A stretch of DNA of 64,000 nt from Flaccisagitta enflata (lineage: Eukaryota). Under the pieces are notes generated by a model. That model saw only the letters and a list, made by a program, of their open reading frames with translations, was not told where the DNA came from and did no database searches. A program made the translations under genes and the position numbers. The stretch is taken from NCBI GenBank assembly GCA_965153355.1, contig OZ231126.1, positions 4,216,001 to 4,280,000 of the forward strand, read 5' to 3'. Shown in pieces: positions 9,907 through 42,825 of this stretch (position 1 is the stretch's first letter; every line of letters starts with the position of its first letter).

Positions 9907-9970
<64 letters not shown>

Positions 9971-10108
9971 ATATTTCGTCTTTATCTTCAGCTTCTTCAT
10001 TTCCTTCACGCAAATTCTTTGTACCTTCAACAGCATCGGTCAACCTCAACATCATTCACAAATTTTTGTTTATTTGATTTCTTCTGAATGCTATTCAATT
10101 TTCCCCAA

Positions 10109-10224
<116 letters not shown>

Positions 10225-10515
10225 ACTCTTTCTTACCAAAATAAAGGCAAACCAAAATGCAAAACAACTTCAGATGCCGATGATGAGGGAAAACCAAATT
10301 AAAACACAAACCAAAAAGAAAAAAAAAAGAAAAAAAGAAAGAAGAGAAAAGAAGAAAAAAAGAGGGAGAAGTCAATATAAGTAACACTTGCTGAGTATAG
10401 TCATCTTTGGAACTACCAGCATTCCTGTATGAGTCTTTTTTCAGACTTGATTTCTTTTCCTTTTCTTTTCCAAGATTGTGGTTGGGAAGTCGGGACTCGA
10501 TTTTTGTGCCCGTTA

Positions 10516-10767
10516 GGGCGTGTTTCTAGTGAGCGCCAAAAACGCGTTTGTTCCCATGAAACGCGATAACAGTGTGAACACATACCCAAGAATTTCAACC
10601 GTCCAACGAGGGAGTGAGCAAAGTGAGTGAGCGAGCCCGTGAACGGAGCGTAGCAAAGCGGAGCGCTGCGGAGCGAGTGAGCGGAGTGAGCGGTGCGAGC
10701 GAACGAACGTAGCGAGCGACCGAGTGGCCCTTTCAAAACGCGATCCTCTTAGACTAGAAACGCCCCC
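10516..10767. mobile_element. PIF/Harbinger-type MITE
   Basis: TIR GGGCGTGTTTCTAGT...ACTAGAAACGCCCCC, TTA TSD (10513-15, 10768-70). Confidence 0.85.
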
Positions 10768-11375
10768 TTAGTCGCGTATCTGCGGGTGCCCATTTGTGGT
10801 GGCAATCAGCCAACAACTTTTTTTCCTTCGCTAAGATTAGGATGCAAAATAGACAGAAGATTTTCAAAAAATTCGCACTTTAATTTTGAAAAAGACATGA
10901 TTAATGTAAAAATGAGGTGCGGCATGAATTCGTGCTTCTATTGATTCGTGCTTCTATAGATTTTTTTCAGATGTGTGTACATGTTTTATTGTATGAACCG
11001 TATCATTGTCATGAAATTATGAAGCACATATACAATCAAACATCATCATGGTTAATAGAAAATCCATTTAGATTCCAAATTTCGTGTTTCCAAGATGGGA
11101 TAATAATGAGTGCTTTGTTACCTTACATGATCACAGGACCTAGAAGATGATTGGGGTGATATTATGGCGTCGCAATCTCGTCGCAATTGATAAGATTGAA
11201 ACTTAGCGCGATCTAGAAAAAGCAATTTGTGTCGCATTGACGCTGAAAGTAGGACTGAGGATCATCAAGGGCAGAAACATCAAACAGTCAGTCACTAAAC
11301 GGGTGAAATTGGAATTTGTGTGAGAGAAAACATTTCATAGTTGGCTTAAGAAAAGTTTGCGTTTAAAGGCACTTA

Positions 11376-11955
11376 ACAGGGTGTGCAAAAAAATCCGCAC
11401 TCGTCATCATTTTTTCTAAAATAACACCTAAAATTTGAGAAATTCTTTCAAGCTAATGTTTAAAATTAAAGATTAAGTTATTTTCATAGTTTAGATAAAG
11501 AATTATTATAGGTATGGTAAATAGAAGAGTACATTTTTAGACTAATAAAGACATAACTAGAATGTTACAAAGATATTTTTCTTGTGAATGAATATCTATA
11601 TCTTGTCTAAATTCAATTGGTGTGTCATTTTTTTTACTGAAATCCCTTCTGCTTGACCTAACCATCTCCCCTCGATGCTTTTCTTCCAAAAATGATATGT
11701 CTAGGGGCCACTGGGGTAGTTATAACTTTCTTTTTTAGTAACAAAAAAAAAGTAACCAAAAGTAAGAAAATCTTACTTTTGGTTTCTTTTTAGATGCATA
11801 TCTTGGCCTTGTAAGGAAATTGTATTAGTTGTTCTTGATTTCTACTTTTAGTATAACCAACTAGGATCCTCTAGTTCAAATTTTAACTCAAAACTCCAAT
11901 GAGAAGTATGGTTTTTAAGCATTACACCGAGTGCGAATTTTTTTGCACACCCTGT
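11376..11955. mobile_element. Tc1/mariner-type MITE
   Basis: TIR ACAGGGTGTGCAAAAAAAT..CGCACTCG, TA on both flanks; counterpart at 57842-58427. Confidence 0.85.
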
Positions 11956-12856
11956 TACTTGGACCTCTATTGCCGGAGCATCAAATGGATAAACCTTCTT
12001 AGCCATACAGGGTCGCTTAGCGAGCAAAAGAAAAAAAAAATCTAAAAGATTTTCATTGATATTTTGAATGACTCGGACTGGATGTTAAACAAATCGATAG
12101 CAGCTTGTCTGACGACTGATACACGCGCGTGGGAGTTGTATCTGTGGGTCACAATTTATGGCAACACCTTTTCTCCGGTTGTTTATATCATCACTATTCC
12201 GAATTATAGATATTTTCAAAGGCGAGGAAGTTTCTGAAATTGGGGGAAGGCAGAAAAGGAAGAGTATTTTCTAAATTATTGTCACCCATTCAAAGCCAAA
12301 CTGTCTAAATTGCCATCAATTCAAGAATCGGGCTTTTGTTTGGGAGAGAACAAAATGGAAACAGAAATGAGATAACATTGACGGGATTGATCTATTAATG
12401 GCCCATGCTTCCTCATGGATTGGCCTTAATATGAAATGAAAGGGGGAATTCTTGAGTATCTCTTAAGCTATAAGCCATGCTTATTTACCAACTTGTCATA
12501 TCGCCTTAAAAAAAACATACAAACACGCTAACATACAAACATTTTCTCTTAGGTTTCTTTTATTAATCACATGACCCACAAAACAATGTTCTGAAACATA
12601 AAGCTTCCACCATTTTGAGCGGTAACTAGGGTAACGACAGTCGCTCTTGCGAAATCCGCCATAACAGAATTTGCAGTTCCAAAGAATTGCATTAACAAAA
12701 CCTACTAACCATTTTTCTGCCACTAACCATTTCTCTACTACTAACCATTTCACTGCCATTTCTCTGCCTCCTTCGCACGCGTGAATTTTAAAAGTTAACA
12801 AGTGTCAAAGCTGTACAAGCAAATTCAACAGAACCTCCCAGTAAGGCTGCCGAAAA

Positions 12857-13055
<199 letters not shown>

Positions 13056-13691
13056 GTTTCAGACGGAATGACAGAGATGGGAGAGAAAGATTGAGTCCAA
13101 TAGAGATACAAGAATGAAGGCAGTAAAAAGACAGAACAAGAGATAGTGTTTGATAGTACAGTGGAAAGAAGATAACAAAAGGGAAATAAATAGAAAAAGA
13201 AGATAGAAAACAATAAGATAGAGAAATAGAGGATATAGACAGAGAAATAGACAAGGAGTGGTGGTGAAAAAAAAGAGACAGACAGAGAAATAGACCGATA
13301 GAAGATTCAAAGAGAGTCGGAGAAACAGAAAAAGAAAAGATAGACAGAAAAATTGAAAGACAGAAGATAGAAAAAAGAGTGTTGGACATCCGAGAGAATT
13401 AGAAAAGATAGATAGAGAAAAAGACAAAAGATAGAAAAAGAGTGTTGGACATTCGAGACTGGGTAAATATGATGACTTAATTCTCGGTGAAGAGAAGAAA
13501 TTTTCTCTCACGACTGGAAGAATTGAATTACGATGACTTTTCAGACTCCAAAGTGAACATTCCACCTGGACCTGTCGCATCATCGGCGTCGTCGTCGTCG
13601 TCGTCGTCGCCATCGTAAGTGGCGTCGTCGTCGTCGTCTTCGTCGTTACCTTTTTCATCATCGTCGTCTTCATCATTACCGTCGTCATAAC

Positions 13692-14960
<1,269 letters not shown>

Positions 14961-15678
14961 ATCAACATCTCCATTCCTGTGACTAGTCTTTTTGATCCTT
15001 TCAGAGGCTCTTACCAGTAAGACATTTCACCATCATCGTCGTCGTCGTCTTCGTCGTCGTCGTTGTCGTCATCGTCGTCGTCGTCGTCGTCATCGTCATC
15101 ATCGTCATCATCTTTCCAGTAAGACCTTTCACCTGTGCTCCAGACAAAAAGGATTCGTGATATACAAATAAGTTTGATGATGATTTTATGTTCTCAACCA
15201 TTCTGTCTCCCTCAACAGATCTTTTGATCATCTTTTTTATCAATTTTTTTTCTTTTTTCTTTTTTTTCGTTCCTTCTTTATCTTTAGTCGCGTGTACGCG
15301 AATCTGCACCCCGCTTTGTCGATCGGTCGGTCGGTCGGTCGGTCGGTCGGTCGGTCGGTCGGTCGGTCGGTCGGTCGGTCGGTCGGTCGGTCGGTCTGTT
15401 CACCACACTTTTACTTTTTTCATCAATTTTATTTCTTTAAAGAGTGTGCTAAGTCATTCTAAGTCATTCCAAGTCAATCTGTAAGTCTCGTTGGTTGACC
15501 TTGTTTTTCCATACTCTCTTCTTTCTTTTTTTTTTCATTCGCTCTGTCCTTTATTTGTCTCTTTTTTTCCCTTTTTGCTGATTGTTCTTCACCTTGAGAG
15601 TATCTTTTGTCTAAGACGTTTCGTCTGAAACGCATCTTATTTAGGAGGTGGCATGTTTTGTAAGCAAAGTAATACATA

Positions 15679-17852
15679 TTAACTTATCCTTTGGTAATTT
15701 GTTTTGCATAAATTGGATAATGACTATGATAAGTTTTAGAGTTTGGGGTTGACTCAGAGTAACTTGATGGATTTGTCTCAATTAGTGGGAAGGATCTTGA
15801 TTTAAGGTTATGGGTGTTATGAGCATTTTACAATGGGAAGATCAGATGGCTGTGAGGAGCATGGGGCGTTCAGCACACTCATCTGGTACTCTTTCTTGTC
15901 ACTTGCACATCTCACAAATAGCTGACAATTATAGATTTTTCTTGCTGTTGATTTGTATCTGTTGAGCCGCTTTGTGGTAAGGTTTGAAGTGGATTTTGAT
16001 AATTCTAAGGATAGCTGTGAGGGGTCCGGATGAAACACCAGTTAGAGCTCCCAAGGCTCTTGTCCTTATTCTAGATTTTTTGTTATAAAGTAATGTTGTC
16101 CAACTCCATATAGTTTAGTACCTTGGTAAAGAATGTCCGGCGGTCCCATTTGGTTGACTCTCGATTCTTACCTCTAAGGGTATGGTTTCTTCACAACATT
16201 GCCTTTGGTAACTACATTATCTTTTGATAATTAACTTATCCTTTGGTAATTTGTTTTGCATAAATTGGATAATGCCTTTGATAAGTTTTAGAGTTTGGGG
16301 TTGACTCAGAGTAACTTGATGGATTTGTCTCAATTAGTGGGAAGGATCTTGATTTAAGGTTATGGGTGTTATGAGCATTTTACAATGGGAAGATCAGATG
16401 GCTGTGAGGAGCATGGGGCGTTCAGCACACTCATCTGGTACTCTTTCTTGTCACTTGCACATCTCACAAATAGCTGACAATTATAGATTTTTCTTGCTGT
16501 TGATTTGTATCTGTTGAGCCGCTTTGTGGTAAGGTTTGAAGTGGATTTTGATAATTCTAAGGATAGCTGTGAGGGGTCCGGATGAAACACCAGTTAGAGC
16601 TCCCAAGGCTCTTGTCCTTATTCTAGATTTTTTGTTATAAAGTAATGTTGTCCAACTCCATATAGTTTAGTACCTTGGTAAAGAATGTCCGGCGGTCCCA
16701 TTTGGTTGACTCTCGATTCTTACCTCTAAGGGTATGGTTTCTTCACAACATTGCCTTTGGTAACTACATTATCTTTTGATAATTCACTTATCCTTTGGTA
16801 ATTTGTTTTGCTTAAATTGGATAATGACTATGATAAGTTTTAGAGTTTGGGGTTGACTCAGAGTAACTTGATGGATTTGTCTCAATTAGTGGGAAGGATC
16901 TTGATTTAAGGTTATGGGTGTTATGAGCATTTTACAATGGGAAGATCAGATGGCTGTGAGGAGCATGGGGTGTTCAGCACACTTATCTGGTACTCTTTCT
17001 TGTCACTTGCACATCTCACAAATAGCTGACAATTATAGATTTTTCTTGCTGTTGATTTGTATCTGTTGAGCCGCTTTGTGGTAAGGTTTGAAGTGGATTT
17101 TGATAATTCTAAGGATAGCTGTGAGGGGTCCGGATGAAACACCAGTTAGAGCTCCCAAGGCTCTTGTCCTTATTCTAGATTTTTGGTTATAAAGTAATGT
17201 TGTCCAACTCCATATAGTTTAGTACCTTGGTAAAGAATGTCCGGCGGTCCCATTTGGTTGACTCTCGATTCTTACCTCTAAGGGTATGGTTTCTTCACAA
17301 CATTGCCTTTGGTAACTACATTATCTTTTGATAATTAACTTATCCTTTGGTAATTTGTTTTGCATAAATTGGATAATGACTATGATAAGTTTTAGAGTTT
17401 GGGGTTGACTCAGAGTAACTTGATGGATTTGTCTCAATTAGTGGGAAGGATCTTGATTTAAGGTTATGGGTGTTATGAGCATTTTACAATGGGAAGATCA
17501 GATGGCTGTGAGGAGCATGGGGCGTTCAGCACACTCATCTGGTACTCTTTCTTGTCACTTGCACATCTCACAAATAGCTGACAATTATAGATTTTTCTTG
17601 CTGTTGATTTGTATCTGTTGAGCCGCTTTGTGGTAAGGTTTGAAGTGGATTTTGATAATTCTAAGCAGCGGCGTAGGACAAGGGACATCAGGGACATCAA
17701 TTGATGTCCCTGCTGTCGGGACACCAAAGTTGTCGGGACACCAAAGAAGATAAAAAGAAAGAGAAAGGAAGAAAAAAAAAGAAAAAAAGAAAAAGAAAAA
17801 AAAAAGAAAAAAAGGAAAAGAAAAAAAAAGAAAAAGAAGGTAGAGAAGAAAA

Positions 17853-17946
<94 letters not shown>

Positions 17947-18503
17947 GGACAAACAGCGAAAGTAAAAAAGTAAAAAAGAAATAGATGAAACAAAAGATGA
18001 AGACGTAAAGAAAAGAAAATAGTAAAACCGACAGAAAGACAAAAAGACTGATATATGGACTCATAAAACCTATGAGAGATTAGAAATTGAAAGTGACAGG
18101 TTATGAAATATTGCTCTCTTCGTCTTGAATTCCTGATCACCTTCTCTCATCCACCTTCAAAACGCACAAGCTGTGGCTGAGAAAGAAAATAACTATTTTC
18201 TCATATACTAGGCATGATTAGGCCCCATCCCACTTAACTAAAATCTCAAAGAAAACAAGAGTATGGTAGGCATTACAATTTTTCAAAATTTTCAAGCAAA
18301 AACTACATATTATTGTCTGTTGGGACACCAGATTTGTCGGACACAAGTTTGGTGGCTGAAGTCCCAAGAAATCCAGCTCCCCTACGCCGCTGATTCTAAG
18401 GATAGCTGTGAGGGGTCTGGATGAAACACCAATTAGAGCTCCCAAGGCTCTTGTCCTTATTCTAGATTTTTGGTTATAAAGTAATGTTGTCCAACTCCAT
18501 ATA
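15679..18503. repeat. 552-bp tandem array, ~3.8 near-identical copies, last copy split by a hAT element
   Basis: Unit starts at 15679, 16231, 16783, 17335; the same 73-aa ORF recurs every 552 bp. Confidence 0.95.
17666..18392. mobile_element. Non-autonomous hAT-type element
   Basis: Perfect 12-bp TIR CAGCGGCGTAGG/CCTACGCCGCTG, 8-bp TSD ATTCTAAG (17658-65, 18393-400); the empty site is seen in the other array units. Confidence 0.9.
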
Positions 18504-18609
18504 TGTATTTTATTGAAAGGAGGGCGAAAAAAAAGAAAATACTCGAAAACTGATAAGCCACATCTATTAAAAATGATCAACGATGATGTTTGCTATGCTT
18601 TCATCAGCC

Positions 18610-18707
<98 letters not shown>

Positions 18708-19195
18708 TCTTTAATCTGTCGACTTATGCTCACCAATACGCCTCACATCCTCCCAGGCCTGTATATAACTGATTAGTAAAACACAATTTACCACTATTTC
18801 AACCTTTACTACAGTCTTCGCTGTTTTTTTGCCTTATAGAGAAGAAAACCATAGATTTTAAAACGCAATGCAACGCATCGCGAGGAAGAAAATCAAAGGC
18901 AGGAGAGGGGGGGCTTAATAACATACACCCCTGCATCTTTTGTGTGTGCGTGTATCTTTTTTTCTGTCCATTTGTCTTTCTTTCAGTTTTTCTTGTACAG
19001 TGCTTCTCTCTTTGCCCTCCCTTGGGGGGACTTAATAACATACACCCCTGCATCTTTTGTGTGTGCGTGTATCTTTTTTTCTGTCCATTTGTCTTTCTTT
19101 CAGTTTTTCTTGTACAGTGCTTCTCTCTTTGCCCTCCCTTGTCTCTCTTTCTCTCTTTCTCTTTCTCTCTCTTTTTTTCTTTCTTTCTTTTTCTC

Positions 19196-19271
<76 letters not shown>

Positions 19272-19419
19272 TCGCTCTTATTTTCTTTCTCTCTCTCTTT
19301 CTTCTTCTCATTGTATCATACTCTTTTCTGTCTACTTTACTATCTATCACTGCTTCTCTGTTTGTCTGTCTGTCTGAAAGTCTTCTGGTGTTTCTCTTTG
19401 TTTCTCTGTCTGTCTGTTA

Positions 19420-19488
<69 letters not shown>

Positions 19489-19909
19489 TCTCATTCCATC
19501 AGACTGGAAAGAGGGCGACGAGGCTCACATCAACTTGAAACACCTTTTTTGAGCTTCGCAGGTGAATTGACTTTGCCTCAGCTTCTTTTTGTCTCTCTCT
19601 TTATCTCTTTTCCTATTATTTCCTTTGTCTCTCTCTTTGTCTCTTTTCCTTTTATTTTCTTTGTCTCTCTCTTTGTCTCATTTCCCTTTATTTTCTTTGT
19701 CTCTCTCTTTGCCTTATCTCCTTTTATTTCTTTTGTCTCTCTCTGTGCCTCTGCGTTATTCTCTCAAAAGGGCTCAGACTTAGGATGAGAAGAACAAATA
19801 AGAACCAAATAGCTGAGTTTGGCATTCCATCCAGTACTCAGGGAGTGTTTCTTTTATTGACAACAATCACGTCTATTCCCAGTAATCGCATTTTCAGCGT
19901 GAACACATA

Positions 19910-20076
19910 CAGTTGAGCCCCGCTCTAACAGATTTCAAGGGACCAATAAATTCTATTTGTTTTAGGCAGAATTCTGTTAATAACAACATAAAAAAAAAAT
20001 TGAACGGACTATGAGTTCGCGTCAGTTTCACATGGAATTCCATTGCTGGCGGGTCCGTTAGAGCAGGGTTCAACTG
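19910..20076. mobile_element. Small Tc1/mariner (pogo-like) MITE
   Basis: TA|CAGTTGA.CCC...GGGTTCAACTG|TA; counterpart at ~51363-51532. Confidence 0.75.
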
Positions 20077-20236
20077 TATCTACTTGTTTCAACCTACTAA
20101 CTTTGGAGTAGGCAAACCAGCAAAGCAAAGAGCTACGTAGTGAGTGAATGGAATGAGCAGTGTGAGCGAACGAACTCAGCGAGCGATTAATCAAGTGACC
20201 CGTTTCAAAAATGCAATTGTACGGTGTATAAATAAG

Positions 20237-20338
20237 CAGCCCTGAACTTAGTGATTTTTTTGAGCGGGCCAGTCGGGCACGCTCCCATCAAATTTAGCGG
20301 GCCCGACTAAAAAACAGCGGGCCCGACAAAATTACTGT

Positions 20339-20430
<92 letters not shown>

Positions 20431-20474
20431 GGTAAAACAGAAGGGAAGATGAAGTATTGAAAAGAGAGAAAAAA

Positions 20475-20547
<73 letters not shown>

Positions 20548-21086
20548 AAACAAAGACAAAAAGACAGAAAGAAAGAAAGAAAGAAAGAAAAAAGAAAGAC
20601 ACAAAGACACAAAGAAAGGAAAAAACAGAAAGGAAAGGAAAGGAAGTAAGAAAAGAAAGACAGAAAGTAAGAAAAATAAAATAAAACAGAAAGGAAGGCA
20701 GAAGGAAAGAAAGAAAGGAAAAGGAAAGAAAGAAGGAAAGAAAGAAGGAAAGAAAGAAGGAATGAAAAAAAAACCAGTTGGTCAAAGTTTAAATGTATTC
20801 TGTGAAACGCTACCTGAGGGGCCTGATTTGAAGCCCAAGAGGTCTGATAGGGGGGGGGATAAACAAACAAACTGAGTGACAAATAAGTATGGAAATCCTC
20901 CTGTGTTCAACAGGAGTCCGTCCCTGGGTTGCTGACAAAAAAATTGATGTTTCTAGTAAAGAAAGAAAGAAAAAAAGAAAAGAGAAAAAGGAGGAAAGAA
21001 TGAGAGAAACAAACAAATAAAGAAAGAAAAAAAAAGGATAGAAGAGAAAAGGAAAAGAAAGAGAGAAAGAAAGAAAGTAAGAAAGA

Positions 21087-21136
<50 letters not shown>

Positions 21137-21162
21137 TCAAGCAAGCAAGCAAGCAAGCAAGC

Positions 21163-21210
<48 letters not shown>

Positions 21211-21389
21211 AAAAAAAAGAGAAAGAAATACAAACGATACAAAAAAATCAATGTACCACTTCAGCATTAATGAAAAAATGACAAGCCAAATATGAGCGGG
21301 CCCGTCGGGCCCGCATATAGAAAAACTTGCGGGCCCGACAGCAAAGATGCGGGCCTCGGGCCCGCGGGCCCGCTCTGAAATCAGGACTG
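20237..21389. mobile_element. Non-autonomous hAT-type element with GCGGGCCC subterminal repeats
   Basis: Termini CAGCCCTGA...TCAGGACTG, 8-bp TSD TAAATAAG (20229-36, 21390-97); empty site in the right arm at ~51205. Confidence 0.9.
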
Positions 21390-23817
21390 TAAATAAGCCC
21401 CTTGAGATTTAGAGTTGGGATGAGAAGAATAAATAAGAACCGAGTTTGACATTCCATCCAGTACTCAATCATGGCAAGTTTCTACTCAATGAAATTCTTT
21501 TCATCACGAGGTTAAGTCGCTTGCTGAGTGACTGTATTAGCGGATGTGTTATTATATATCTATCTTGCCTGGATGAAAATGCATTGATCTGAAACTGATC
21601 TCTCTTCCCAACTCTCATACATAAACCCGCTATAACGAATCCAAAAGTAACTAAAGTCATCCCATAACAAATCTTGGTCCCTTCATGATAATTTTTTTCT
21701 GGCAATAGCGGAAATCCACCTATAACTAAAAAGATTTGTGAGACCGTTGACATCCGTTATTGCGGGGTTCAACTGTACATACAATGCTAAAGGGTGTCGT
21801 AATTCATGTGCATGTTTTATCGCTGCGTGGCCGGCCTCACTCACGTAGCATATTGAGCAGGATGTATCTCATCTACAAGAATTCATGAACATTCTGATAA
21901 AGTGCCGAAATCTTAAATAAAACAAACCTGCACTAAATGATACTGGCTTACTCGGTTGAATTAGAGAAATCGCTTAATCGGGAAAAAAGTCGAAGTCAGT
22001 CTTCGACTTTTTGACATATTTGAGAGAAACAGGGTTTTCATTTTCTTATTAAGAAGTTGAGGGTCTCAATCGACCAATTGCACCCTTGGACGAAATTGAT
22101 AGGGTAAGTAAATTTGATAATTCTCTTTCATTTGGCACCAAGCAAAAGTCTCTGGGACCAATATTCTTTTTGTTATGAATTTTGAAAGATTTATTGACGA
22201 AAAATTTAAATTGAATTTTTTTTTTATTTTTCATGATTTCATGTAGGATCAATAAAGGAGTGTGTCTAAGTTTGATTGAGCATGTAAATACAAGAAAACA
22301 TGCTCATGAGTTATGAGCATAGCTGCTCATGTGTGAGGGTGATTTTGAGCATTTTAGCTCATTTAGCTCATTTAGCTCAGTTATTTTTCTGATTCCAAAT
22401 ACGATAAATGGGCAAATATATTGATGGATGTTTAAGCAAGCAAATACAAGGAAGCATGTCAGTGAGCAGAGCTGCTCATCTGTGAGGGAGTTTTTAAGTA
22501 TTCTAGCTCATTTACCTCATTTAGCTTGCTCTTTTTTCAATTTCAAAACAGATAAATAAATGTTTTGATTTAAGCATGCAAATACAAAAAAGCATGTCAG
22601 TAAGCATAGCTGGTTGTCTGGTTGAGTGATTTTGAATATATTAGCTCATCTAGCTCATTCGGCTCGGGCCTAATTTTCTCTGATTTTCAGTGCAACCAAT
22701 ACACACAATTGCTCTTAATTTGATCTAACAAATAAAAAAAATTGCAGTGACTGAAGACAAAAGCTTGGTGAAAAGTGAACAACGCTTACGACTTTTTTCC
22801 TCACGGCGACAGTCGCCATTACTGGTATTGTTTCAATAGAAATGATAAAGGCCAATTGGCACAGCTCAAAGCAAGATAACTTCAATTTTTAGTTTCTTTT
22901 ATTTTTTAATCAAAGTTATCTTTTCAGTTGAAACATTTTCATTTAGTTTAAAAGGCAGCCCCGGCAGTAATGCATAATTCAAGTCTTATGGTGAGAAATT
23001 GTTGCTGCTCAGAATGTTTAAAAATCTAGTACCCAAGTTAACAGGCCTGTATATAATTGAGGGTCTGGAGATGGGGAAGAAAATCAAAGGGGGAAAAAAG
23101 AGAAAAAAAAAAGAAATTTGGGGAAAATATTACTTTTTACAGTACCAGATGATAAAACCTAATTAGTAAATCACAATTTAACACTATTTAAATCCTAACA
23201 ACATTGTTTTGTAGCTCTATAGGAAAGAAAATCATAGATATAAAAACGCGACGCGACGCGTCGCGGGGAAGAAAATCAAAGGCAGGGATGGATGTAGGGG
23301 AGCTCTGAAGTTCGCCACGTCCACTTTGCATTTCAAGACCGAGTGAGGTTCAAGTCCGACTTATGTAAAAACTGAAAACTATAAAAAGAAATGTAATTTC
23401 CTTACTTTTGGCATCATTCTTGAATGAAAATCCTCCTTTTAAAGGCTTTTTTGTAATAATTCAAACAAACTCAGTTCAATTCTTCTCTTTTTAGGATATT
23501 TTTCTAAGAAATTTTTAATTTTTCAACCTTGAATCCCTTCTAATTCAAGACCGACTTGCTTTTCAAGCCCGACTTTTACCACGTCCATGGACGTGGTGGA
23601 CGTGGCGTCCCCTACATCCATGGGCAGGGGGGGGGGGGAAATCAAAAGCAACTCAATTTTATACACCCCTGCCCAAGTACCAAATTTTCCATGCCTCCTG
23701 AAATATTAATTACTGAGCATAACCGCCCTTTCTATTTACTGTTTGGCAATTTCAAATCTGAACAAACTAGTTTCCAATCAATTCATTGATACAAGATCTT
23801 ATTTCTAATATCGTAAT

Positions 23818-26800
23818 TCATCTACAAATTATAGCTTTTTTGACATTGCCGCAAAAACTACGAAAAGCGAATCTGAAATTGTTGGAAGCGATGAGATAAA
23901 TGCCGAGATTTATACTCGACGTCATCACACCAATCAGATAACTTCCGTAACGCCACCGCGACTGAGTCGCTTCCAAACGATCGCGACAATCCAAAGCGAA
24001 AACGAAATCTAACAAAACGATTATATGGGAACAACTAAACGCCAAAGCGACTAATGCTACCAACTTCTTAAAGTCATCTTCGGTTTTCGCTTTGGATCGA
24101 CTATTTTCGGCGTAACGCGATTTATCTTTAGATCGACTATTTTCGGCGTAACGTGAACGGAAGTGGAGTTTGATGAGTACGAAAAGGGACAATATTAACT
24201 CGATTATCATAAACGCGATCGAATTAACGATTCCAAACCAAGAAGAAACGATAAATCGGGGAAGGTCTAAAAGAGGCGGGATGAGAGAATTGACTAAAGC
24301 TAATACAAAAGTGTAGACGATTGTAATCAATGACGTGATGACGGTTAATTCTACCAAAATTCTCTTTTGAGTTTTGGTTTGACTTTCCATGGCAGAGGTG
24401 ACGTTTTTCAGGGCCCAAGCACGAACGAAGGAGATGTAGAGTATCATGGAACTATTGATTCCCTTGCAAAGAAGACAACTCCAGAACACGACTTGAAAAC
24501 CGTGGAAGCAAAATCGTTGCGCATGACTGTTGAAAAAAAAAGGGAGGGGGGGGGTGGTAGATGATGATCATTAATTGTATTAAGGATCAGGGTACTCTTG
24601 ACGTCCGCGCAAAGAAGACAACTCCAAAATACAACTTGAAAACCGTAGAAGCAAAATTGTTGCGCTTGACTATTGAGAAAAACGGGGGGTGGGGTACCCA
24701 GATGATGTTCCTTAATTTGCCCAAGGGCTACATACCCTGTATTGGCTCTCCATTCAATATTGTTTGGTTCTGAGTAGAAAAATCAGGATTGAAGGGCAGG
24801 GGCATTTTCACAGTTTTCAACGTTAGCATCACGGATGGACCAACAGACGGACGGATAGACAAAGCCTCACTTACAGACTGCAGTAGCAACTCCGCAACTT
24901 AGCCATGACAAGCAAACGTGGTACAGGGTCATCCACCTGAGTTGTCGGATTCTGTTAAGCTTTTCCTCTCTGATGCCAAGAGACATGGATTTGAAATTGA
25001 TCAAGTCTTAAAGAGTATAGATTAACATTTTTTGTATAAAAATTTCAGCCATTTCACCTTGATCTGGGGGCTGAGAAAAACCCGAGATGAATCTCAATAG
25101 TTTAAATTACATGAAAAGCATACTTCTAGCTGCCCCAGTGAGATGAAATTTTACATGAAGAAAGCTGATGGTTTTGCAGAGTTTCAGTTAAAATTTCATC
25201 TCACTGGGTTAACTAGAAGTATGCTTTTCATGTAAATTAAGCTATTCAAACATGCTAGATTCATCTCGGGTTTTTCTCAGCCCCCAGATCAAGGTGCATT
25301 TTGGTCAAGTAGTTTGTCTTTAACATGGATTTGAACATAAAGCTTTTATTTCTGGACTGAGCAGATTTTCCAGGAATTGTGCAAGTTACCAACCCAATTA
25401 GTTTTTGAATTTTTTTAGTAATCAATCCAAAACAGGCTTGAATCAGAAACGATATTAAAGTATTTCAATATATTTGTCAGTTTATCTTTCATTTGAGATT
25501 AATTTTCTCTCTATGTCAAGAATAGTAAAAAAAAATGAAAATGAATGCAAGCAGGATTCAGAATATCTGATAGACAATCTGTAAAATGGTAAAATACTTG
25601 TGTCACTTCAAACTTATGTAAAAGACAAACTACTTGACCAAAATGGCTGAAATTTTTATACAAAAAATATCAAGCTATACTCTTTAAGACATGATCAATT
25701 TCAAATCCATGTCTCTTGGCATCAGAGAGAAAAAGCTTAACAGAATCCGACAACTCAGGTGGATGACCCTGTAGATTGAAGAACTGAACAACGGACGGAC
25801 TTGCCAAAAAATGGTGGATGAAGTCGCGTACACGGGACTAATATTAGAAAATCAGGGTATCTATTAATAGGGAGTACAGTTACACCCCACTTGAACGGAC
25901 CCAAGAGTAACGGTAAGCCTGTAATAACGGATTTAGCTTATTGGTCCCTTCAAATTATCTTTTTTAACATTTCCTTTGTTAGCAAAAACAGAAATCATTT
26001 TCCAACAAACAACCATCATCTTGTATTACCACCTGGCCCGAGCGTGAAACCGGAAGTTCGTTCCGGTTGCGGAAAAAGGGCAGGGTCGCTCCAAAACGAT
26101 AATGGGCTGCTTGGCCGTGACGGTAACGGTATTCAGAAGAAGAAGAGGAAGAAGAAAAGAAAAAGAAAAGAAAAAAGAAGAAAAGAAAAAAAAAGAGAAG
26201 AAAAAAAAAAAGAAAAAAACGGCGAAAAGAAAAAAAAGAAGAAAAGAAAAAGAGAGAAAAAGAGTTGTAACCACAGATGAGTAAATACAGATACTTATGA
26301 TTATTGAAGACCTGTAATGTTGTCCTACTCATACCGTACCGTCCCCGACACGATATTTCAATAAATTGCATCGCTACGCCAGGTGGCTGAAAATGGCGGT
26401 GTTGCAACGTCCACGGAATAGAGGTTTACCGCAATGTCACGCTCGGCCCAGATTACCACCCTTACCTCGTGCAAGGCAGACACAAGTCAATGCCGTTAAA
26501 CGAATCATCTTATATTACCACCCTTACCTCGTGCAAGGCAGACACAAGTCGCAATTCCAACTGAAGACTGTGATCGTGAAAGTCCCAACATTAACGAGAA
26601 TATCCGAGAAAGCCAATGATGTTAAATGAATTATCTTGTATTACCACCCTTACCTCGTGCAAGGCAGACACAAGTCGCAATTCTAACTGAAGACTGTGAT
26701 CGTGAAAGACCCAACATTAACGAGAATATCCGAGAAAGCCAAAGCAGTTAAATGAATCTGCGCCTGAGTCCGACGTTGATTGAGTCTCATAGACTCCTTC

Positions 26801-28155: not shown

Positions 28156-30115
28156 TTATTTTCTCACGGTAAAAACCTTCTTCCAATATCTGATGAGAGT
28201 GACTCTAAAATTTTTCGATGTTGCGACATAAATCAGCAAATTGACGCTGGAATTTAAAATTCCCGTAAAATAGGTCCAAAACCGGAAACAGCTTTCTGTT
28301 GCTGTCAATCGATCGTCGACAATCAACGCGTTAACGAGGTCAATCACTACAAATACGTGACTACAGCAAAACAACAAACCCACAAACGCCACCAATTTCT
28401 TGAAATCATCGTCGGTTCTTGTTCTGGAACAACGATGTTGGAGGATGAGAAGCTGACGACTGCGCAGCTTCACCAAAACAAAGATGGCCGATGCCATCAC
28501 AATCAGGATTATCAAAATGGAACTGAAGATTCCGAATCTCGCGGAAGAAGTGAACCTAGCAGAAAGGATATTAAAAGTTCATGAGGTACCAAACTTTTCA
28601 GTACATTATGTAAAGGCCCATCTGACTGAAATCTTTAGACTGGAAATATCACGAAAATTCATGATGTATTGGCATATCAAAAACCAGCCTTAGTTGAAAC
28701 ATACAGCTTTTTTTAGCCTAATCATGCTTCAGTTTTTACCCTGCTAAAATGTATCTATATAGAACATAAGATTTCAACTTATACAGACGAATTTTTATTT
28801 GAATGTTTATCGCATCTTTATCTAAGTGCAATTTACTAAAGGGGCCCATAAATCTTGACCTTAATAAGCGAGTCACTGCTAAAACAGGCTTTTATAACCA
28901 AGGGTATTTCAACACTTCCTCATACTTCAAAGTCTACACGACAATCTACTGTATATTACGCCCCTCGAAGCGCCTTCAAAGTTAACCCACAACCTCCCCC
29001 ATTTAATCAATATGGAGATTTGTTGAAAAAATTATCATCTCAAAATGGGAACCATTGTTTGGAGCTTAATTCAATTTCTGTGATGATCAATGGTAGGAAA
29101 AAATCTAAGTCAAACCTTATTTCAGAAACACACATAATCAATTAATCATTGTACTTCCAGGAGTACATTTGCATGCACCTGTGTGCCTATTTGGCGCATA
29201 ATGATAGTAAATTGGTCAAAAAATTTGTAGGTTGGGATCATAGGATAAGTGACACCCTTCCTATAACTTCCTGAAATGCTTCAAACTTTTCCTAACGAAG
29301 GCTCCCATAGCCACAACGGTCTGAAATTTTGCCTGAAACATTTTTTTTCATCAAATCTCCGCGATGGTTACATGGGTGAGGTCGTTGGTTTACTTTGGGG
29401 GCGCTTTGAGGGACGTACGTAAAATTTGTTGAACAGCGCCCGTATATTCCCCGCTGAAAGTCCTGTACCTCGGGATCTCGAACAAAAACGGAATGAGCAA
29501 GTTTGCGGCCGCCAAACCCACTCCATAGACGGTGGTCACCAACAAGGAACAAACGACGAGTTCCACGATGACTCTTTGTTGGGTCTTTTTCTGACTATCC
29601 ATGGCATTTGAAATGGTTCTGAAAGACGCCGCTCGTTCTTAGGGTGTGTTTCCAGTGAAGACCAAAAACGCGTTTGTTCCCATTGAACGTGTTTTCAGCG
29701 TGAACACATATCCAAGAAATTCAACTGTCTCAGGAGGGAGTGAGCGAAGTGAGTGAGCAAGCCCATGAATGGAGCAAGCGAGCGAAGCGAGCGTAGCAAA
29801 GTGGAGCGCTGCAAAGCGAGTGAGCGGAGGGAGCGGTGCGAGCGACCGAGTGGCCCGTTCAAAACGCGATTGCCTGTGACTAGAAACGCCACCTTAAAGA
29901 CGCCGCTCGAACGCAGGAAATGTAAACCGTGATGGAACGATTCACGCCGAGCAGGAAGAGACTCGTCCAAAAGGTCGCTTCAAATCCGAGTTGACAAATT
30001 TCGGTTTTGATTGAGGAAGATTCTCCGCAAAAGTCACAATTCCAACTGAAGATGGCGAGAGTCGTGCAGCCAACGTCGATGATCATGTCCGCGAAGGCCA
30101 ATGCGGTCAGATGGA
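28156..30115 (-). CDS. Divergent class A-like 7TM GPCR 'GPCR2', TM2-TM7; exons ~30115-29893, 29618-29469, 28555-28156; TM1 exon not found
   Basis: The spliced product QIHLTALAFADMII...ISCVRAASLR|TISNAMDSQKK...EIPR|FTSSARFG...NSSVNLLIYVATSKNFR aligns to GPCR1 without gaps across both junctions. The upstream exon boundary is approximate. Confidence 0.8.
29642..29893. mobile_element. PIF/Harbinger-type MITE forming most of a GPCR2 intron
   Basis: GGGTGTGTTTCCAGTG...CTAGAAACGCCACC with TTA TSD (29639-41, 29894-96). Confidence 0.85.
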
Positions 30116-30462
30116 TCTGAGCGCGAGGGCACGGTTGGAAGGAGGTATGGATGGACCATGGGTAGATTGTGCCATGGATGTAGGAAGAGATGGATACATG
30201 GAGCATGGGTAGTTTGGGTATGTGTGGAAGGAGGGATGGAGGGGGGCGTGGGTAGATTTTACCATGGGTGGGTGGAGGGATGGATGGAGTATGGGTAGAT
30301 TGTGCCATAGGTGAAAGGAGAAATGATCGGATTGAGCATGGGAAGATCAGACACAGTTAAATTGGCATAGGATGGGTGAGCATTGAAGATTGGGTAAGAA
30401 TGGAAAGAGGCATGAGTTGATATAGTTTGGATGAATTGACAGTGTATGTGGCGAATAAGGCC

Positions 30463-31004
30463 TTTTTGGGCAGCGGCCCAAAGGGCCGATGTCCTGTAGA
30501 ACACGGGGGAATTTCGGGACGTGCGTCCGTCCATCCGTCCATCCGTCCATCCGTCCATCCTTCCGTCCCTCCTTCTGTCCCCCCCCTGTTGACCCTCAAG
30601 GCCTCAAATTAGCCCTCCCAGGACTCAATTTAGCCCTCCAGGCCTAAAATCAGCCCTCTTGGCTCAAATCAGCCCCCCTCCCATGCTTTAAATCTGCCTC
30701 CCAGACCTCAAATCTGCCCTCCAGACCTTCAATCAGCCCTCCAAGCTTAAAGCCAGCCCGCCAAACCTCAAATCTGCTCTCCAAGCCTTAATTATGCCCT
30801 CCAACCCTCAGATATGCCTTCAGTGGCATAAATCAGCCATCTAGAGCCCCCTCAGGACGGACGGACGTCTCGAAATTCCCCCCTGTGTTTAACAGGACAT
30901 CGGCTCTACGGGGCCGCTGCCCTGCTCTCACTCCACTTCTTCACTGGATCACTCAGCAGGGCATCGGGTACCGCTGACCATGTGCAATCCTTGGATGACT
31001 AGTT
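30463..31004 (-). mobile_element. HINE/DINE-1-like element (family of 4495-5025)
   Basis: Same subterminal inverted repeats and central tandem repeats, in reverse orientation. Confidence 0.7.
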
Positions 31005-31340
31005 AAAAGTATTTGTGGGTAAGGTATAGATGCATTGGCCAGAGAAGGACAGGCTATGGAGCTCACCGGAACACCTTATCTATAAATGAAACTGACTGTA
31101 AAGTGATCCTTTAAATGAGTTATACCTACCAGTAAAGGTGACTCTCGCCGACCAGAAAAAATCGTAAGATAGTCATGTTTTTTCAGTTCCTTCTCTCTCC
31201 TCGTTATATTCACGCGCCTGTGTGTGTGTGTGTATGTGTGTTTGTGTGTTTGTGTTCGTGTGTGTGTGCGTGTGTGTGTGCGTGTGTGTGTGTGTGTGTG
31301 AGTCTGTCTGTCTGTATGTCTGGCTGTCTGTCTGTCTTTC

Positions 31341-31388
<48 letters not shown>

Positions 31389-31390
<2 letters not shown>

Positions 31391-33376
31391 GCAATGAAAA
31401 TGTGGGAGATCAAGCTGGTATTGAATCACGACAACGGCTCACTTGAGGTCCCAAACATAAGAATTAAACGTGGTATCTTCCAAGGTGATACTTTATCCCC
31501 CCTCCTCTTTATACTTGCTCTAAACCCTCTCAGCTTCCTGTTAAATGAAGGTGGGTGTGGATACAAGATAGACGGAATATGTTTTAACCACGTTTTATAC
31601 ATGGATGATATCAAGACGTTTTCCAGCAATACCAAGGACGGAGTTAAACTGATCAAAATAATGTTTGACTTCTCTAAAGATATTGGCATGTCGTTTGGAA
31701 TCGAAAAATGCAAAGTCCTTAACGTGGTAAGAGGGAAATATGCAAAGCTAGGAGGTGTACAGCTCCCAAACGGGGATTTTATTGAAGAAATGGACGAGGG
31801 GGATGTATACAAATACCTTGGGGTTGTTGAATCGACAATGATCAAGCATGCAGAAATGAAACAGAAAATCCTTACAACATTCAAAAAGCGAGTAAAAAGT
31901 ATTCTCAAATCAGAACTAAACTCTAGAAATATTATGATAGCTATCGGGGAGTATGCTGTACCGGTTATGTCGTACACATATGGAATAATTAACTGGACGG
32001 AGGAAGAAATAAAGAATGCAGACCTACTAGTAAGAAAAAACTTAAATATGTATAAAATGTTTGAGCTTAAAAGCGACATAGACCGACTATACATCCCTCG
32101 ATCGATGGGCGGAAGAGGTTTACAATCAATATGGGATGGCTTCAAATGTGCCAATGTCAGAATAGCACACTACATGACTGGAAGTGTTGACCATCACATG
32201 AAGGTATGTGCCAATTTTGACAGGCAGTGCCTTTTCTCTATCATAAAACGTGCTGAAAAATTCTCCACCTTACACAATCCACCCACTCCCGAAAACATTG
32301 AGAGTAGACCATTGCTCAGACAGGCCAAGATTGTAGCACAGAGGTTGCGAGAAACAATCTACAAAGACAGATATGAACTGTTCCTTGCAAAACCCCAGCA
32401 TGGTGCCCTTATGCGAATAATGAAAGAAAACGACACTGATATAAAAACAAGTTGCTCATGGATGGACAAATGTCACCTCTCGCCCCAATCTGAAGCATAT
32501 ATATGTGGCATGCAGGAAATGGCCATTTTTACCAGATGGCATGAACACCATATCATTAGAAATAGAGACTCCGACTTATGTAGAATATGCAAAAAAGAAC
32601 CCGAAACAACCTTCCACATACTTTCCGGCTGTGATGTTCTAGCAAAAAAAGAATACTTTGATAGACACAATAGTGTTGCTAAATACATTCACTACCAAAT
32701 ATGTAAAAGATATGGAATCCAAACTGAGCCAAAATGGCACTTACACAGACCAGCAGAGGTGTACATAGATGGGAAAGTTGAACTCCTGTGGGACATCCCC
32801 ATCACCACTGCAAGGATGATTGGTGCAAATAGGCCAGATATTGTCGTAAGAGACAAAAGTAACAAGGTAACATACATAATCGATATCAGCTGCCCCTGTG
32901 ACACAAATGTACATAGCAAGGAGGTGGAAAAAATCTCCAAATATTGTAGTCTGCGAGTCGAACTAGCGAAGATGTGGAATACTGAATGTGTTGTTATACC
33001 TGTAATTGTGGGTGGATGCGGTACTGTTTCAAAAGAATTTACAAATTACCTTGGGATGATCCCGGCTGAATTGCAACCTGAAATGTGCCTGAAGATTGCC
33101 TTACTAGGGAGCGAAAAAACCATGCGCTCTTCTTTATCGAGAAAATGATAGCAATCTCCCTGTATGGACTGGTGTTGCCATTACGGCCCAATTCGTTTGT
33201 TCAAAGTTGGCCTTTGTTGGATTACATATGTAGTGGACTACTTGAATCAAAACCTCATCATCAACCAAAACAAAACAAACGAAGAAATTCTGAATTGCCT
33301 TTAGGATTAGGTCAGTCCTCGGCTATCAGTCTTATGTTTCCAAGACAGTTCGATCTTATGCAAGTACATGTATAAA
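31389..33376 (+). mobile_element. 5'-truncated RLE-type non-LTR retrotransposon (R4/Dong-like) in a (TC)n tract
   Basis: (TC)n on both flanks; open RT-RLE ORF followed by ~230 bp of 3' UTR ending TATAAA. Confidence 0.9.
31394..33148 (+). CDS. Partial retrotransposon ORF: RT, CCHC zinc knuckle, restriction-like endonuclease
   Basis: GIFQGDTLSP, LYMDD, YKYLG, YIPRSMGGRGL, CRIC..ETTFHILSGC, RHN, RPDIV..IDISCP..EK..KY; no internal stops. N-terminal RT domains are missing. Confidence 0.92.
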   Translation: MKMWEIKLVLNHDNGSLEVPNIRIKRGIFQGDTLSPLLFILALNPLSFLLNEGGCGYKIDGICFNHVLYMDDIKTFSSNTKDGVKLIKIMFDFSKDIGMSFGIEKCKVLNVVRGKYAKLGGVQLPNGDFIEEMDEGDVYKYLGVVESTMIKHAEMKQKILTTFKKRVKSILKSELNSRNIMIAIGEYAVPVMSYTYGIINWTEEEIKNADLLVRKNLNMYKMFELKSDIDRLYIPRSMGGRGLQSIWDGFKCANVRIAHYMTGSVDHHMKVCANFDRQCLFSIIKRAEKFSTLHNPPTPENIESRPLLRQAKIVAQRLRETIYKDRYELFLAKPQHGALMRIMKENDTDIKTSCSWMDKCHLSPQSEAYICGMQEMAIFTRWHEHHIIRNRDSDLCRICKKEPETTFHILSGCDVLAKKEYFDRHNSVAKYIHYQICKRYGIQTEPKWHLHRPAEVYIDGKVELLWDIPITTARMIGANRPDIVVRDKSNKVTYIIDISCPCDTNVHSKEVEKISKYCSLRVELAKMWNTECVVIPVIVGGCGTVSKEFTNYLGMIPAELQPEMCLKIALLGSEKTMRSSLSRK

Positions 33377-33556: not shown

Positions 33557-35203
33557 GACCCTCCCCGCGAAACCGCGATTGAAGATACTTCGGCGACTCG
33601 GGCTTTGATCCTTTTGGGTATTTTGCTGCCTTCCAACGCCGAATTGGCCGAAACCGTCGCCGACGATCATTTCCTTTCGGCGCTTCTCGATTACCTTAGA
33701 TACGGTCCACCCAATCAGGTGCGTTGAGCGATGATTTTGATTTTATTTATGTGTACGTGTTTTCGTTGCGGACGGGTGGGTAGGGGCGTCCAACCTCCAT
33801 CCACACCTCTATCCCCACACTCCCACTTACAAACATACACAACAAGTCATCCAAGGATTGCACATGGTCAAGGATCGCACATGGTCAGCGGTACTCGATG
33901 CCCTGTTTGGAGTGATCAGCTGAAGAAGTGGAATGAGAGCAGGGCAGCGGCCCCAAAGGGCCGATGTCCTGGACACAGGGGTGAATTTCCTTACGCCCTG
34001 AGAAAGCATACTTCAGGCCTTTGGAGCATTTTTCCATGATATTCAATCAGAGTTATATAATTTTTACAATTTCTTGTTAATTTTCCATATTATTCCATGA
34101 GAATTTCAGTTTTTTGTCCATTTTCCATGTAATCCAATTGCAATTTTGCAATTTTTTCATTTTTTGTTAATTTTCCATGTTATTGGATGGGATATATGCA
34201 TTTCTCTACTTTTTGTAATCTTTCCATGTTATTCAATGGGAAGTTTGTATTTTGTCATTTACCCATGTTATTCAATGGGAATTTTTCATTTTGTTCTTAG
34301 TTTTCATCATTATTCAATGGGAAGTTTGGCATTTTGTCATTTTCCATGTTATTCAATTTGAGAATTTGAGAATCGAGCCTGGGGATGTAATGGCCAGACG
34401 GATTGACGACGACGGACGGACGTAAGGTAATTCACCCTCAAATTTACAGGACATTTGGCCTGGGGCCGCTGCCCAAATAGTATCCAAAACGCTTGTTCAT
34501 TACCATTGAACCAATGGACCGACGGACCAATGGACCGACGGACGGACGGACAAAGCCTCTTATAGAGTTGCGTGTCCGCAACTAAAAATAATGGCACTCC
34601 TCAGGTCAAGTCCGGTTCGAAAGTGGTTGCTGCGGTATTGAAGCAGTCTTCGCGCTCGAGGACGGCGTTGGTCGACAGCAAGAAAGGACTGTCAACGTTA
34701 GTTTTGCTGCTTAAAGACGCCGACGAGATGATCGTCGGAAACGCCGCTTTAGGGCTCAGCCTTTGCTCTGAGGTAAACGACGACATCATCTTGTGTGGGC
34801 CAAAACGAGAGATATAGGCTTTTAGCAAACATATCTGATGAGGAACTTTTTAAGAATGACTACTGTACTTCAGGCATGTTTACCAAATCGGCCAAGTCAA
34901 AGATATGATATTATTTGTTATTCAATGAATAAAAACAAATCATGATTATTCAAAACTTATTTTCTCTCGTTTACCTCATTTCCTCGATCCAAGGTTCCCA
35001 AAGTCGTCGAGAAGTTAACAAAGACGCAGATCATCAAACATCTGCTGACGTTGGCGCGCGACGCCAACAAACCGGAAGTGAGAGAGAACTGCGCCATTCT
35101 TCTGGCGAAATTGGCGCAAAAAGACTCGAGACATTTGGAAAGACTCAGAGAATTACATGGAATCGAAATTTTACATTCTTGCATGAAGTTTATCAAACAT
35201 TGA
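33557..35203 (+). CDS. TTC12: TTC12-like protein, C-terminal ARM region; exons 33557-33718, 34605-34772, 34994-35203; upstream exons not found
   Basis: DEMIVGNAALGLSLCSE|VPKVVEKLTKT..LLTLA..NCAILLAKL..RLRELHGIEILHSCMKFI* matches the TTC12 C-terminus as I recall it; phase-0 GT-AG joins. Confidence 0.8.
33841..34476 (+). mobile_element. HINE/DINE-1-like element in a TTC12 intron
   Basis: Same 5' motif CATGGTCAGCGGTAC and subterminal inverted repeats; internal TTTTCCATGTTATTC repeats. Confidence 0.65.
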
Positions 35204-35633: not shown

Positions 35634-41326
<5,693 letters not shown>

Positions 41327-42825
41327 GTTGGAAGAAGCGAGGGTGGTAAATCAGAGCGTGCGTGACTGTGATTGGAGCGCAAGGACCAAACTTGATTTTC
41401 ATCAATAACAGACAACAGAAAAAGAAAAAGTACCCAGGGGTGCAACGTTGCGTCTACCATTCTGCTGAGTGCTGATACATCATACAATGTTGCATCATCA
41501 ATTCAGCGTTTTCATCGCTTGCATTTTACAAATTAGGCAGATGGAAGGACAGATTGACGGACCGACGGACAGAAGCCTCTCCTCTCATAGAAGAATGCAA
41601 GAGGGAGAGAAAACAAATCAAAACCAAAATAACAACGGCGTAAACGAGGTCTTTACGATTGCGGTGCCAGTGCCTGATTTAGCATTGCTTGAATTGAGCA
41701 GATTGCAGCGAATGTCATTTTTCATGTGAAGCAAATCTTAAAGACGAGGTTATCTCCTAGACGCTTATTCACGAGTAAGATATATTCAATGGCTCTAAAA
41801 TTCTACCTCTACTCTTCAATTCTCCCTGCAATCAAAAGCAACTGTTATCAGTAAAGCCTTAATGGTGCCTGAAGTATTCATTTTGAGAGATTCGGACTGG
41901 TTCCGTCTGAAAGCACATAACCTACCATTTGTTCATGCAAAATTTCAAAGCACTGGCTTTAGCGTTTTAGCTTCCAACTTTTAAATGAATATGTTTTCTT
42001 GAATTTCTGCCCAAATGCTTTTGAAGCAATACATCACTTTATCCTGAAGAAATTTGAATGAGAAGTTTCAGCTGACCAGTGGATTTTTTGACTAGAAAAA
42101 TAGGTAGTGAGGAAAATGAAACAACTAAGATCACACATTGAAAAGCAACACTGCTTGAGTGATTTAACTGAAGAGGTGAGTGATAGGCAAGTGTCTGGTA
42201 CTGAGGAACCCCAGATTACAGGGTGAATTTCTTTTCATCCTGAGACAGTATAATTCAGGCCTTAAAGGTAATTTCTTCTTATGATATTCATTAGAGCTAG
42301 TATTTTCTACAATTTATTGTCAATTTTCTATGTTATTCAATGGGAATTTCATTTTTTTTGTCAATTTTCCATGTTATCCAATTGCTATTTTGCTTTTTTT
42401 TTTTTTTTTTTTTGTTAATTTTCCATGTTATTCGATGGAAAATGTGCATTTTTCTATTGTTTGTAAATTTTCCATGTTATTCAAACGACATCTGTTGTCA
42501 TTTCATGTATTCAATGGGATGTTTGCATTTTGTCTATTTCATGTTATTCAATGGTAATTTGAGAAACTGAGAAGGTTCAGGGGGACGCACGTGACGCATT
42601 TGCCAGACGACGAGTCGTATGGAAATTTCCCTCTGGGTTCTACAGGACATCGGCCCTTTTCAAATGCTGCCCAAAAAGGACGAAAAAAAAAAAAAGATCA
42701 GTAGGATTTGAAGGGCTTGAAGGGCTTCTTTTGATGTAGAAACTCATTGTTTTTAGGAAATTAAAGCTAAGATGCAGAAAACTGGTAGTGTTATACAATA
42801 TTTAAACGATTACAGAGGAAGGAGA

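Follow-up and report, generated by a model that had tools for sequence, protein, structure and literature searches.

Can an ordinary transposon become a working intron in an animal gene, and can the steps be read back from the DNA? For intron origin in animals, few cases have both the before and the after state readable. The question is raised by a locus in Flaccisagitta enflata, on a stretch of 64,000 nucleotides (assembly GCA_965153355.1, contig OZ231126.1, positions 4,216,001 to 4,280,000) that is called the window below and is numbered from its first letter. On its minus strand, an exon assigned by homology to a divergent rhodopsin-like G protein-coupled receptor (GPCR) gene is interrupted by a miniature inverted-repeat transposable element (MITE) together with a short tandem duplication of the exon. 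The 19-bp duplication itself allows the ancestral exon sequence to be reconstructed, and one GT-AG splice would restore it exactly. From the sequence we give an even chance to removal of the segment as an intron, now or until recently, by joining position 29893 to 29618 (29893^29618). Features are collected in Table 1; a slash marks a splice boundary.

Exon A ends with ...CGA GCG GCG TCT TTA AG at 29893 and is directly followed by GT (29892-29891). The bases after the exon end, GTGGCGTTTCTAG..., are the start of the MITE, which has no long open reading frame (ORF) of its own. Its two ends are GGTGGCGTTTCTAGT... and a CCAGTGAAG-type end finishing CCC, and GGTGGCGTTTCTAGT matches the reverse-complement GGGTGTGTTTCCAGT imperfectly. 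TAA stands on both sides of this MITE and of the related copies at 60382 and 10770. A 3-bp TAA/TTA target duplication marks PIF/Harbinger (Tourist-like) MITEs, and the focal element is a putative member of this class. The MITE splits the first 19-bp copy into 29908-29894 (GAGCGGCGTCTT plus TAA) and GAAC at 29638-29635, and an intact second copy follows. The copies agree at 18 of 19 bases, the sole difference lying at 29621 (A in copy 1, C in copy 2). A direct-repeat search put the spacing of the 19-bp repeat at 274 nt. When at most one mismatch is allowed, the 17-mer has one occurrence in the 1.3 kb around the site, and 0 of 100 shuffles gave it. Past the second copy the frame reads A ACC ATT TCA AAT GCC ATG GAT AGT CAG. 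The acceptor, TTTCAG, has its last base at 29619.

The proposed intron contains all of the MITE except its first base, then the TAA duplication and GAAC, and finally 16 nt from the start of the second 19-bp copy. On the left the MITE abuts the exon; on the right it is followed by TAA, GAAC and the duplicated exon end and by no other intron sequence. Because the contents are only MITE, TAA and duplicated exon, the interruption is, as read from this anatomy, a derived state that arose inside a continuous exon. The observation is far beyond chance, and the structural inference is sound: a MITE and a duplication make up the interruption, and a single splice would restore the exon exactly. As another source of the 17-19-bp repeat, a retroposition-type origin was rejected, since an A-tail is missing and only a tandem 19-bp unit accounts for the GAAC that follows the right TAA.

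The splice is exact in a way that other pairs of sites are not. Fourteen GT dinucleotides (29990-29700) were paired with ten AG dinucleotides (29760-29560). Twenty-two of the 140 pairs are in frame and stop-free, and only 29892/29619 gives a length change of 0 codons. Spliced TCTTTAAG/AACC is the exact reading of one uninterrupted 19-bp unit, in which the last exon G is the first base of the MITE and replaces the G after TAA in the target. Joined by coordinates, the product is gap-free against 12 relatives, both at the focal junction and at the second intron, and the three exon pieces give 257 stop-free codons (765-768 nt). TCTTTC stands directly before the acceptor AG. CTAAG (29642-29638), 20 nt upstream of the acceptor, is a possible branch site; the branch-site consensus is yUnAy. 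The preliminary description had given the exon end, the GT donor, the TAA insertion in the first 19-bp copy and the TTTCAG acceptor, and all of these were reproduced, coordinates included. Its further statement that removal of 274 nt leaves no gap against a paralogue without an intron here was confirmed as well, the paralogue site lying in one uninterrupted ORF. The paralogue is uninterrupted at both focal intron positions and carries a separate intron at a place where focal exon A runs through. Since each gene has an intron or introns that the other lacks, intron positions are fluid in this family.

The bases that make the splice sites are best judged against the other copies of the MITE, which were found when the segment was compared with the window by BLAST. 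The reading in copies 60382 and 10770 is TAA-GGGGGCG...CGCCC-TAA, which confirms the limits of the element and the TAA duplication. These two have identical flanks and are twins in a large inverted segmental duplication, and they therefore represent one independent insertion; the 3′ fragments at 19834-19909 and 51533-51608 form another such pair. The window holds three independent full copies, the focal one included, and one related fragment family. At position 3 of the MITE (29891), the focal copy has T and the comparator copies have G, and this T creates the donor GT. The opposite terminus ends in CCC in 6/6 aligned sequences, and the symmetry supports G as the ancestral base at position 3. 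The earlier claim that other copies end GGGGGCG stood for 60382 and 10770, which make up only one independent comparator, the copy at 4392 being degenerate there.

The difference at the MITE end lies at exactly the base that makes the GT, and the sole difference between the 19-bp copies lies at acceptor position -3 (AAG to CAG). The C in copy 2 is the derived base because TTA (Leu) of copy 1 fits the family column, which is L/I/V in the 12 aligned relatives. Compared in this way, the GT and the -3 C are both most simply read as derived changes.

The host gene was placed by profile matches and by a broad search for relatives. Pfam 7tm_1 was hit below threshold by exon C (19.2 bits, E 0.00091) and by paralogue exon 1 (16.1 bits), the cut-off being 30.5 bits. 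An exhaustive HMMER search with the large exon of the paralogue gave 51 relatives at E <=0.001, with full-length members of about 300-360 aa, and the Atlas neighbours of relative P0004 are 7tm_1 clusters. On these matches, the exon pieces probably belong to a divergent, lineage-specific rhodopsin-like GPCR family. A hidden Markov model (HMM) of the family, built from 21 full-length relatives, was run on all six-frame ORFs of >=20 aa in the window. The focal reading keeps 40 of the 43 columns that are >=80% conserved, and the relatives themselves keep 65-95% when each is left out in turn. The second intron of the gene contains an inverted-repeat element (29417-28957) whose 75-bp arms are 80% identical and which has TA on each side. 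The borders of this intron are both AG/GT (GAG/GTACAG and TAG/GTTCAC), and it may be an insertion-type intron again.

Identities of 87.4%, 85.1% and 83.8% to the three other copies show that the focal MITE is not young, and the three independent copies are roughly equidistant at 84-88%. The focal copy has 20 private differences in 206 unambiguous columns, plus 2 indels. By this comparison the MITE is old relative to the segmental duplication of the window, which is 94% identical (mostly 90-95% along its arms). A simulation of neutral change in the joined coding sequence gave a chance of no stop of 0.28 at d=0.05 and of 0.10 at d=0.097. When indels were added at 1/10 of the substitution rate, the joint chance of survival fell to 6e-3 (5%) and 6e-5 (9.7%). 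If the MITE aged in place, the gene was under selection after the insertion, and this would require removal of the MITE from the messenger RNA (mRNA). On the intron reading, the segment would be an established, lineage-specific, transposon-derived intron rather than a newborn one, and the gene copy may since have lost its 5′ exon. The preliminary description had spoken of an intron gained from a MITE, a duplication and point changes and caught while being born. The derived interruption and the unique restoring GT-AG pair support the structural side of this. The stage does not hold, since the MITE copy differs from the others by 13-16% and is not young, and the host copy may be a relic.

Alternatively, the segment may never have been spliced, being a lesion in a dead or dying gene copy whose GT and CAG are chance substitutions and whose reading ends ...RAASLRWRF-stop. 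We rate this as a serious possibility, at somewhat less than an even chance. It needs two specific chance substitutions at splice-critical bases; by our own arithmetic the probability is ~0.03 for G to T at MITE position 3 and ~1/57 for a repeat difference that falls at -3 as C. The splicing signals themselves are among the points that speak for a lesion and weigh against the intron. The donor AAG/GTGGCG is weak, agreeing with the consensus from -2 to +3 only, and two AGs (29639-29638 and 29633-29632) precede the acceptor and could compete with it. Paired with the donor at 29892, neither of these AGs (ends 29638 and 29632) is among the in-frame, stop-free pairs, and if CTAAG is the branch point, both would be too close to it to compete. 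Folding of the intron RNA revealed no unusual structure (z = 0.62) and no pairing between the inverted repeats, and a hairpin that draws the splice sites together was therefore discarded.

The state of the gene also weighs on the side of a lesion. Among the six-frame ORFs of the window, HMM positions 1-75 (the N-terminus and the first transmembrane helix, TM1) were found only in paralogue exon 1. Fourteen of 20 family N-termini match that exon at E <0.01, the best match elsewhere in the window being at E=0.07, and no N-terminus/TM1 exon for the focal gene was detected in the 34 kb upstream. The focal gene spans HMM positions 76-325 only, with no complete seven-helix coding region that has a start codon. 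Homology to the paralogue goes about 21 nt past the CAG at 30117 (QPCPRAQ versus QRRTQAQ), to ~30137, where its end coincides with a 133-bp tandem repeat (30130-30345) and then transposons. Judged from this truncation, the focal gene may be a relic that has lost its 5′ end. Both neighbouring copies are damaged as well: the first exon of the paralogue ends at an in-frame TAG (26685-26683), and a third receptor copy (49811-50321) is a 3′ fragment only, a twin of the 3′ part of the paralogue. As these copies stand, the receptor neighbourhood is decaying. Against a dead gene stand the 40 of 43 conserved columns that are kept and the 257 codons free of stops.

Protein databases offer no support for the junction. 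Three protein searches (exon A and exon C, each against longer proteins, and exon A with the read-through against proteins of near length) found no junction-spanning protein. In the exhaustive search, only ORF-style fragments match the receptor locus: P0001, 99% identical to the paralogue, and P0012, 96% identical to exon C. P0012 has 113 aa and starts at an internal methionine of the last exon, and it looks like an ORF call on unspliced DNA.

The age argument can be turned in both directions. At least 3 of the 20 private differences of the focal MITE (the GCTGAAAAC block) are common to the related fragment family. These are subfamily-level differences, so that the age in place is <9.7% and overestimated, and the argument from decay is weaker. 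The insertion could be recent, and at 1-2% divergence the joint chance of survival of the ORFs is 0.13-0.36. On the other hand, the independent MITE copies are about equidistant, a pattern that looks like an old burst and later decay in place. The duplication poses a further difficulty for the intron. The 19-bp tandem duplication alone destroys the frame, and the proposed order of events therefore passes through a null allele.

It is improbable that the segment is spliced at another junction. Two in-frame and stop-free options were found. The donor GGC/GTTTCT (29887) with the acceptor TAAG/ (29638) would add 8 codons and repeat RAAS, and this TAAG holds the first AG past the pyrimidine-rich end of the MITE. 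The donor GGC/GTCTTT (29901) with the same CAG acceptor would remove 3 codons. However, both donors lack an exonic AG and have T at +3, and the first product would gain, and the second lose, residues within a stretch that is gap-free across 12 relatives.

That the MITE landed in a pre-existing intron at the same position, for which the varying intron positions of the paralogue and the focal gene might speak, is very hard to credit and was rejected on anatomy, since the MITE abuts the exon, nothing but TAA, GAAC and the exon-end copy lies to its right, and the paralogue is uninterrupted; the old intron that had been named as a ground for refutation is thereby excluded.

If the segment is an intron, its parts suggest how it was assembled. 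A Tourist-like MITE and a 19-bp exon duplication would have split one continuous GPCR exon into two, 274 nt apart. The donor GT would lie at MITE positions 2-3, made by the G-to-T change, and the first base of the MITE, a G, would take the place of the target G after TAA as the last exon base. The acceptor TCTTTCAG would come from the end of the second 19-bp copy, where AAG would have been sharpened to CAG, and the right TAA with its neighbours (CTAAG) would act as the branch site. Splicing at 29893^29618 would then yield exactly the mRNA from before the insertion, through ordinary removal of a U2-type intron. It is possible, though we hold it to be unlikely, that an ordinary MITE became a working intron of an animal receptor by this composite route of a substituted donor, an acceptor from a duplication and a branch site from the target duplication, as the sequence would have it.

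The order of the steps can be narrowed in part. TAA plus the first G of the MITE makes TAAG on both sides, and hence the MITE, its 3-bp duplication and the G-to-T change could alone have given an exact intron ending CCCTAAG (29638), much as introners can take a splice site from their target duplication (PMC11282704, PMC9860276). The AG at 29638 is now frameshifting because 19 extra bases follow it, and only the distal CAG works. If the duplication came first, the allele stayed null as long as any of the MITE, the GT and a usable acceptor was missing. Since the second copy runs unbroken through the point where the MITE inserted, a MITE-first order needs the duplicate to have been copied from an uninterrupted template. 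Such a template could be the other allele, a sister chromatid from which the MITE had been precisely lost, or a transcript after splicing; break repair in which both ends are extended and afterwards joined is one conceivable route. With either order, at least two steps are needed.

Table 1. Features of the receptor locus and of the related MITE copies in the window.
Feature	Position	Strand	Remarks
Exon A	30116-29893	-	74 codons + AG; follows CAG at 30117; family HMM 76-150; tblastn to paralogue
First 12 nt of first 19-bp copy	29908-29897	-	continues via TAA, then GAAC past the MITE
Left TAA target-site duplication	29896-29894	-	within codon run TTA AG
MITE	29893-29642	-	252 bp; imperfect terminal inverted repeats; alignment to other copies
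Proposed GT-AG intron	29892-29619	-	274 nt
Right TAA target-site duplication	29641-29639	-	with preceding C and following G gives CTAAG
Second 19-bp copy, intact	29634-29616	-	GAGCGGCGTCTTTCAGAAC; supplies the TCTTTCAG acceptor
Exon B	29618-29469	-	A + 49 codons + AG; family HMM 146-204
Second intron	29468-28556	-	GT-AG, GAG/GTACAG ... CTGCTAG/G; not in paralogue
Exon C	28555-28156	-	stop 28158-28156; motifs DDDF..KLVA and NSSVNLLIY; family HMM 202-325
Paralogue first exon	27015-26686	-	
Paralogue second exon	~24522-23818	-	
Homologous site in paralogue	24423-24379	-	RAWALKNVTSAMESQ; uninterrupted, single ORF
Related MITE copy	60382-60642	+	BLAST of segment against window
Related MITE copy	10770-10513	-	BLAST of segment against window
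Related MITE copy	4392-4171	-	degenerate at 5′ end; BLAST of segment against window
Related 3′ fragments	19834-19909 and 51533-51608		BLAST of segment against window

The paralogue has been reshaped by duplications of its own. At 26440-26760 (minus strand), the 3′ end of its exon 1 together with the donor CACGAG/GTAAGG is present in about three tandem copies with a period of ~123 bp; the in-frame TAG at 26685-26683 sits in the first copy, and the second copy has TGG. The acceptor and the start of its second exon are also tandemly duplicated (24582-24695 versus 24450-24567, minus strand; 69% protein identity over 39 residues). Both borders of the paralogue intron therefore lie within local duplications, as the donor and the acceptor regions are each tandemly repeated. 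The inverted segmental duplication (7342-24381 versus 63934-49811) has arms of ~17 kb, mostly 90-95% identical, that flank a central 25 kb. Its inner edge cuts the last exon of the paralogue (24381/49811), which explains the 5′-truncated third copy.

Upstream of the receptor homology, an inverted-repeat element of about 545 bp lies at 30461-31004. Its inverted ends are at 30468-30532 and 30855-30922, and it contains a 20-bp tandem array; the window has another copy, 76% identical, at 4495-5027, and fragments at 33869-33989 and 42624-42679. On the opposite strand, just upstream of the end of the receptor homology, an ORF of 668 aa (31142-33148, plus strand) resembles a long interspersed nuclear element (LINE), with RVT_1 at E 3.1e-12. 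The next recognisable gene upstream is an exon of a cytoplasmic dynein 2 light intermediate chain 1 homologue (37606-37836, plus strand; E 4e-19 to PDB 6rlb_E), the sole conserved non-receptor gene piece recognised in the window. Two tandem arrays lie at 15678-17665 (552-bp period, ~99% identity) and at 1562-2789 (~30-bp period, 84-88% identity, one frame open for 358 aa). Rfam and transfer RNA scans of the window gave no match.

If the composite route sketched above is right, the locus would be a fully resolved single intron gain in a metazoan with every step still readable in the DNA, and recruitment of splice sites in the manner of introners would need no specialised element. If the segment is unspliced, the locus shows no more than common transposon damage in a receptor cluster that is decaying.

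Among known systems of intron gain, the introners come to mind first; their hosts include Micromonas, Aureococcus and Symbiodinium. As far as two accounts describe them (PMC11282704, PMC9860276), introners are MITE-like and carry one splice site on the element, the other coming from the target-site duplication. Like them, the focal element is short, has terminal inverted repeats and a 3-bp duplication and sits in an exon; one putative splice site lies in the end of the element, and the length of the spliced mRNA would be unchanged. It is unlike them in that the window gives no sign of a specialised family, whose members would sit as introns in many unrelated genes and carry or recruit splice sites when they insert: 0 of the 3 other MITE copies lie in a recognisable gene, and the comparator end is GGG and not the GGT that would supply a GT. 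In addition, the focal acceptor would be supplied by a 19-bp duplication that lies outside the target duplication, the host gene is from an animal, and the case is a single one.

A second parallel is the Rogers model, in which an intron is gained by tandem duplication of an exon segment that contains AGGT and so supplies both splice sites; a case from a potato RNA-dependent RNA polymerase is that of PMC4974935. Here too the duplicated piece of exon would give the acceptor, the spacing of the repeat equals the length of the intron (274 nt), and the mRNA would be exactly restored. In contrast to that model, the 19-bp unit ...TTTAAG/AAC has no AGGT or GT, and the donor and most of the intron would come from the transposon.

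Insertions of Ds and dSpm are spliced out of maize exons, and new introns of Daphnia are flanked by short direct repeats. The focal segment would share with these cases a non-specialised insertion removed through cryptic sites near its ends, and it has short direct repeats at the junctions. The maize insertions usually alter the mRNA, whereas restoration at the focal locus would be exact. By these comparisons, the locus would be a variant of known transposon-derived intron gain.

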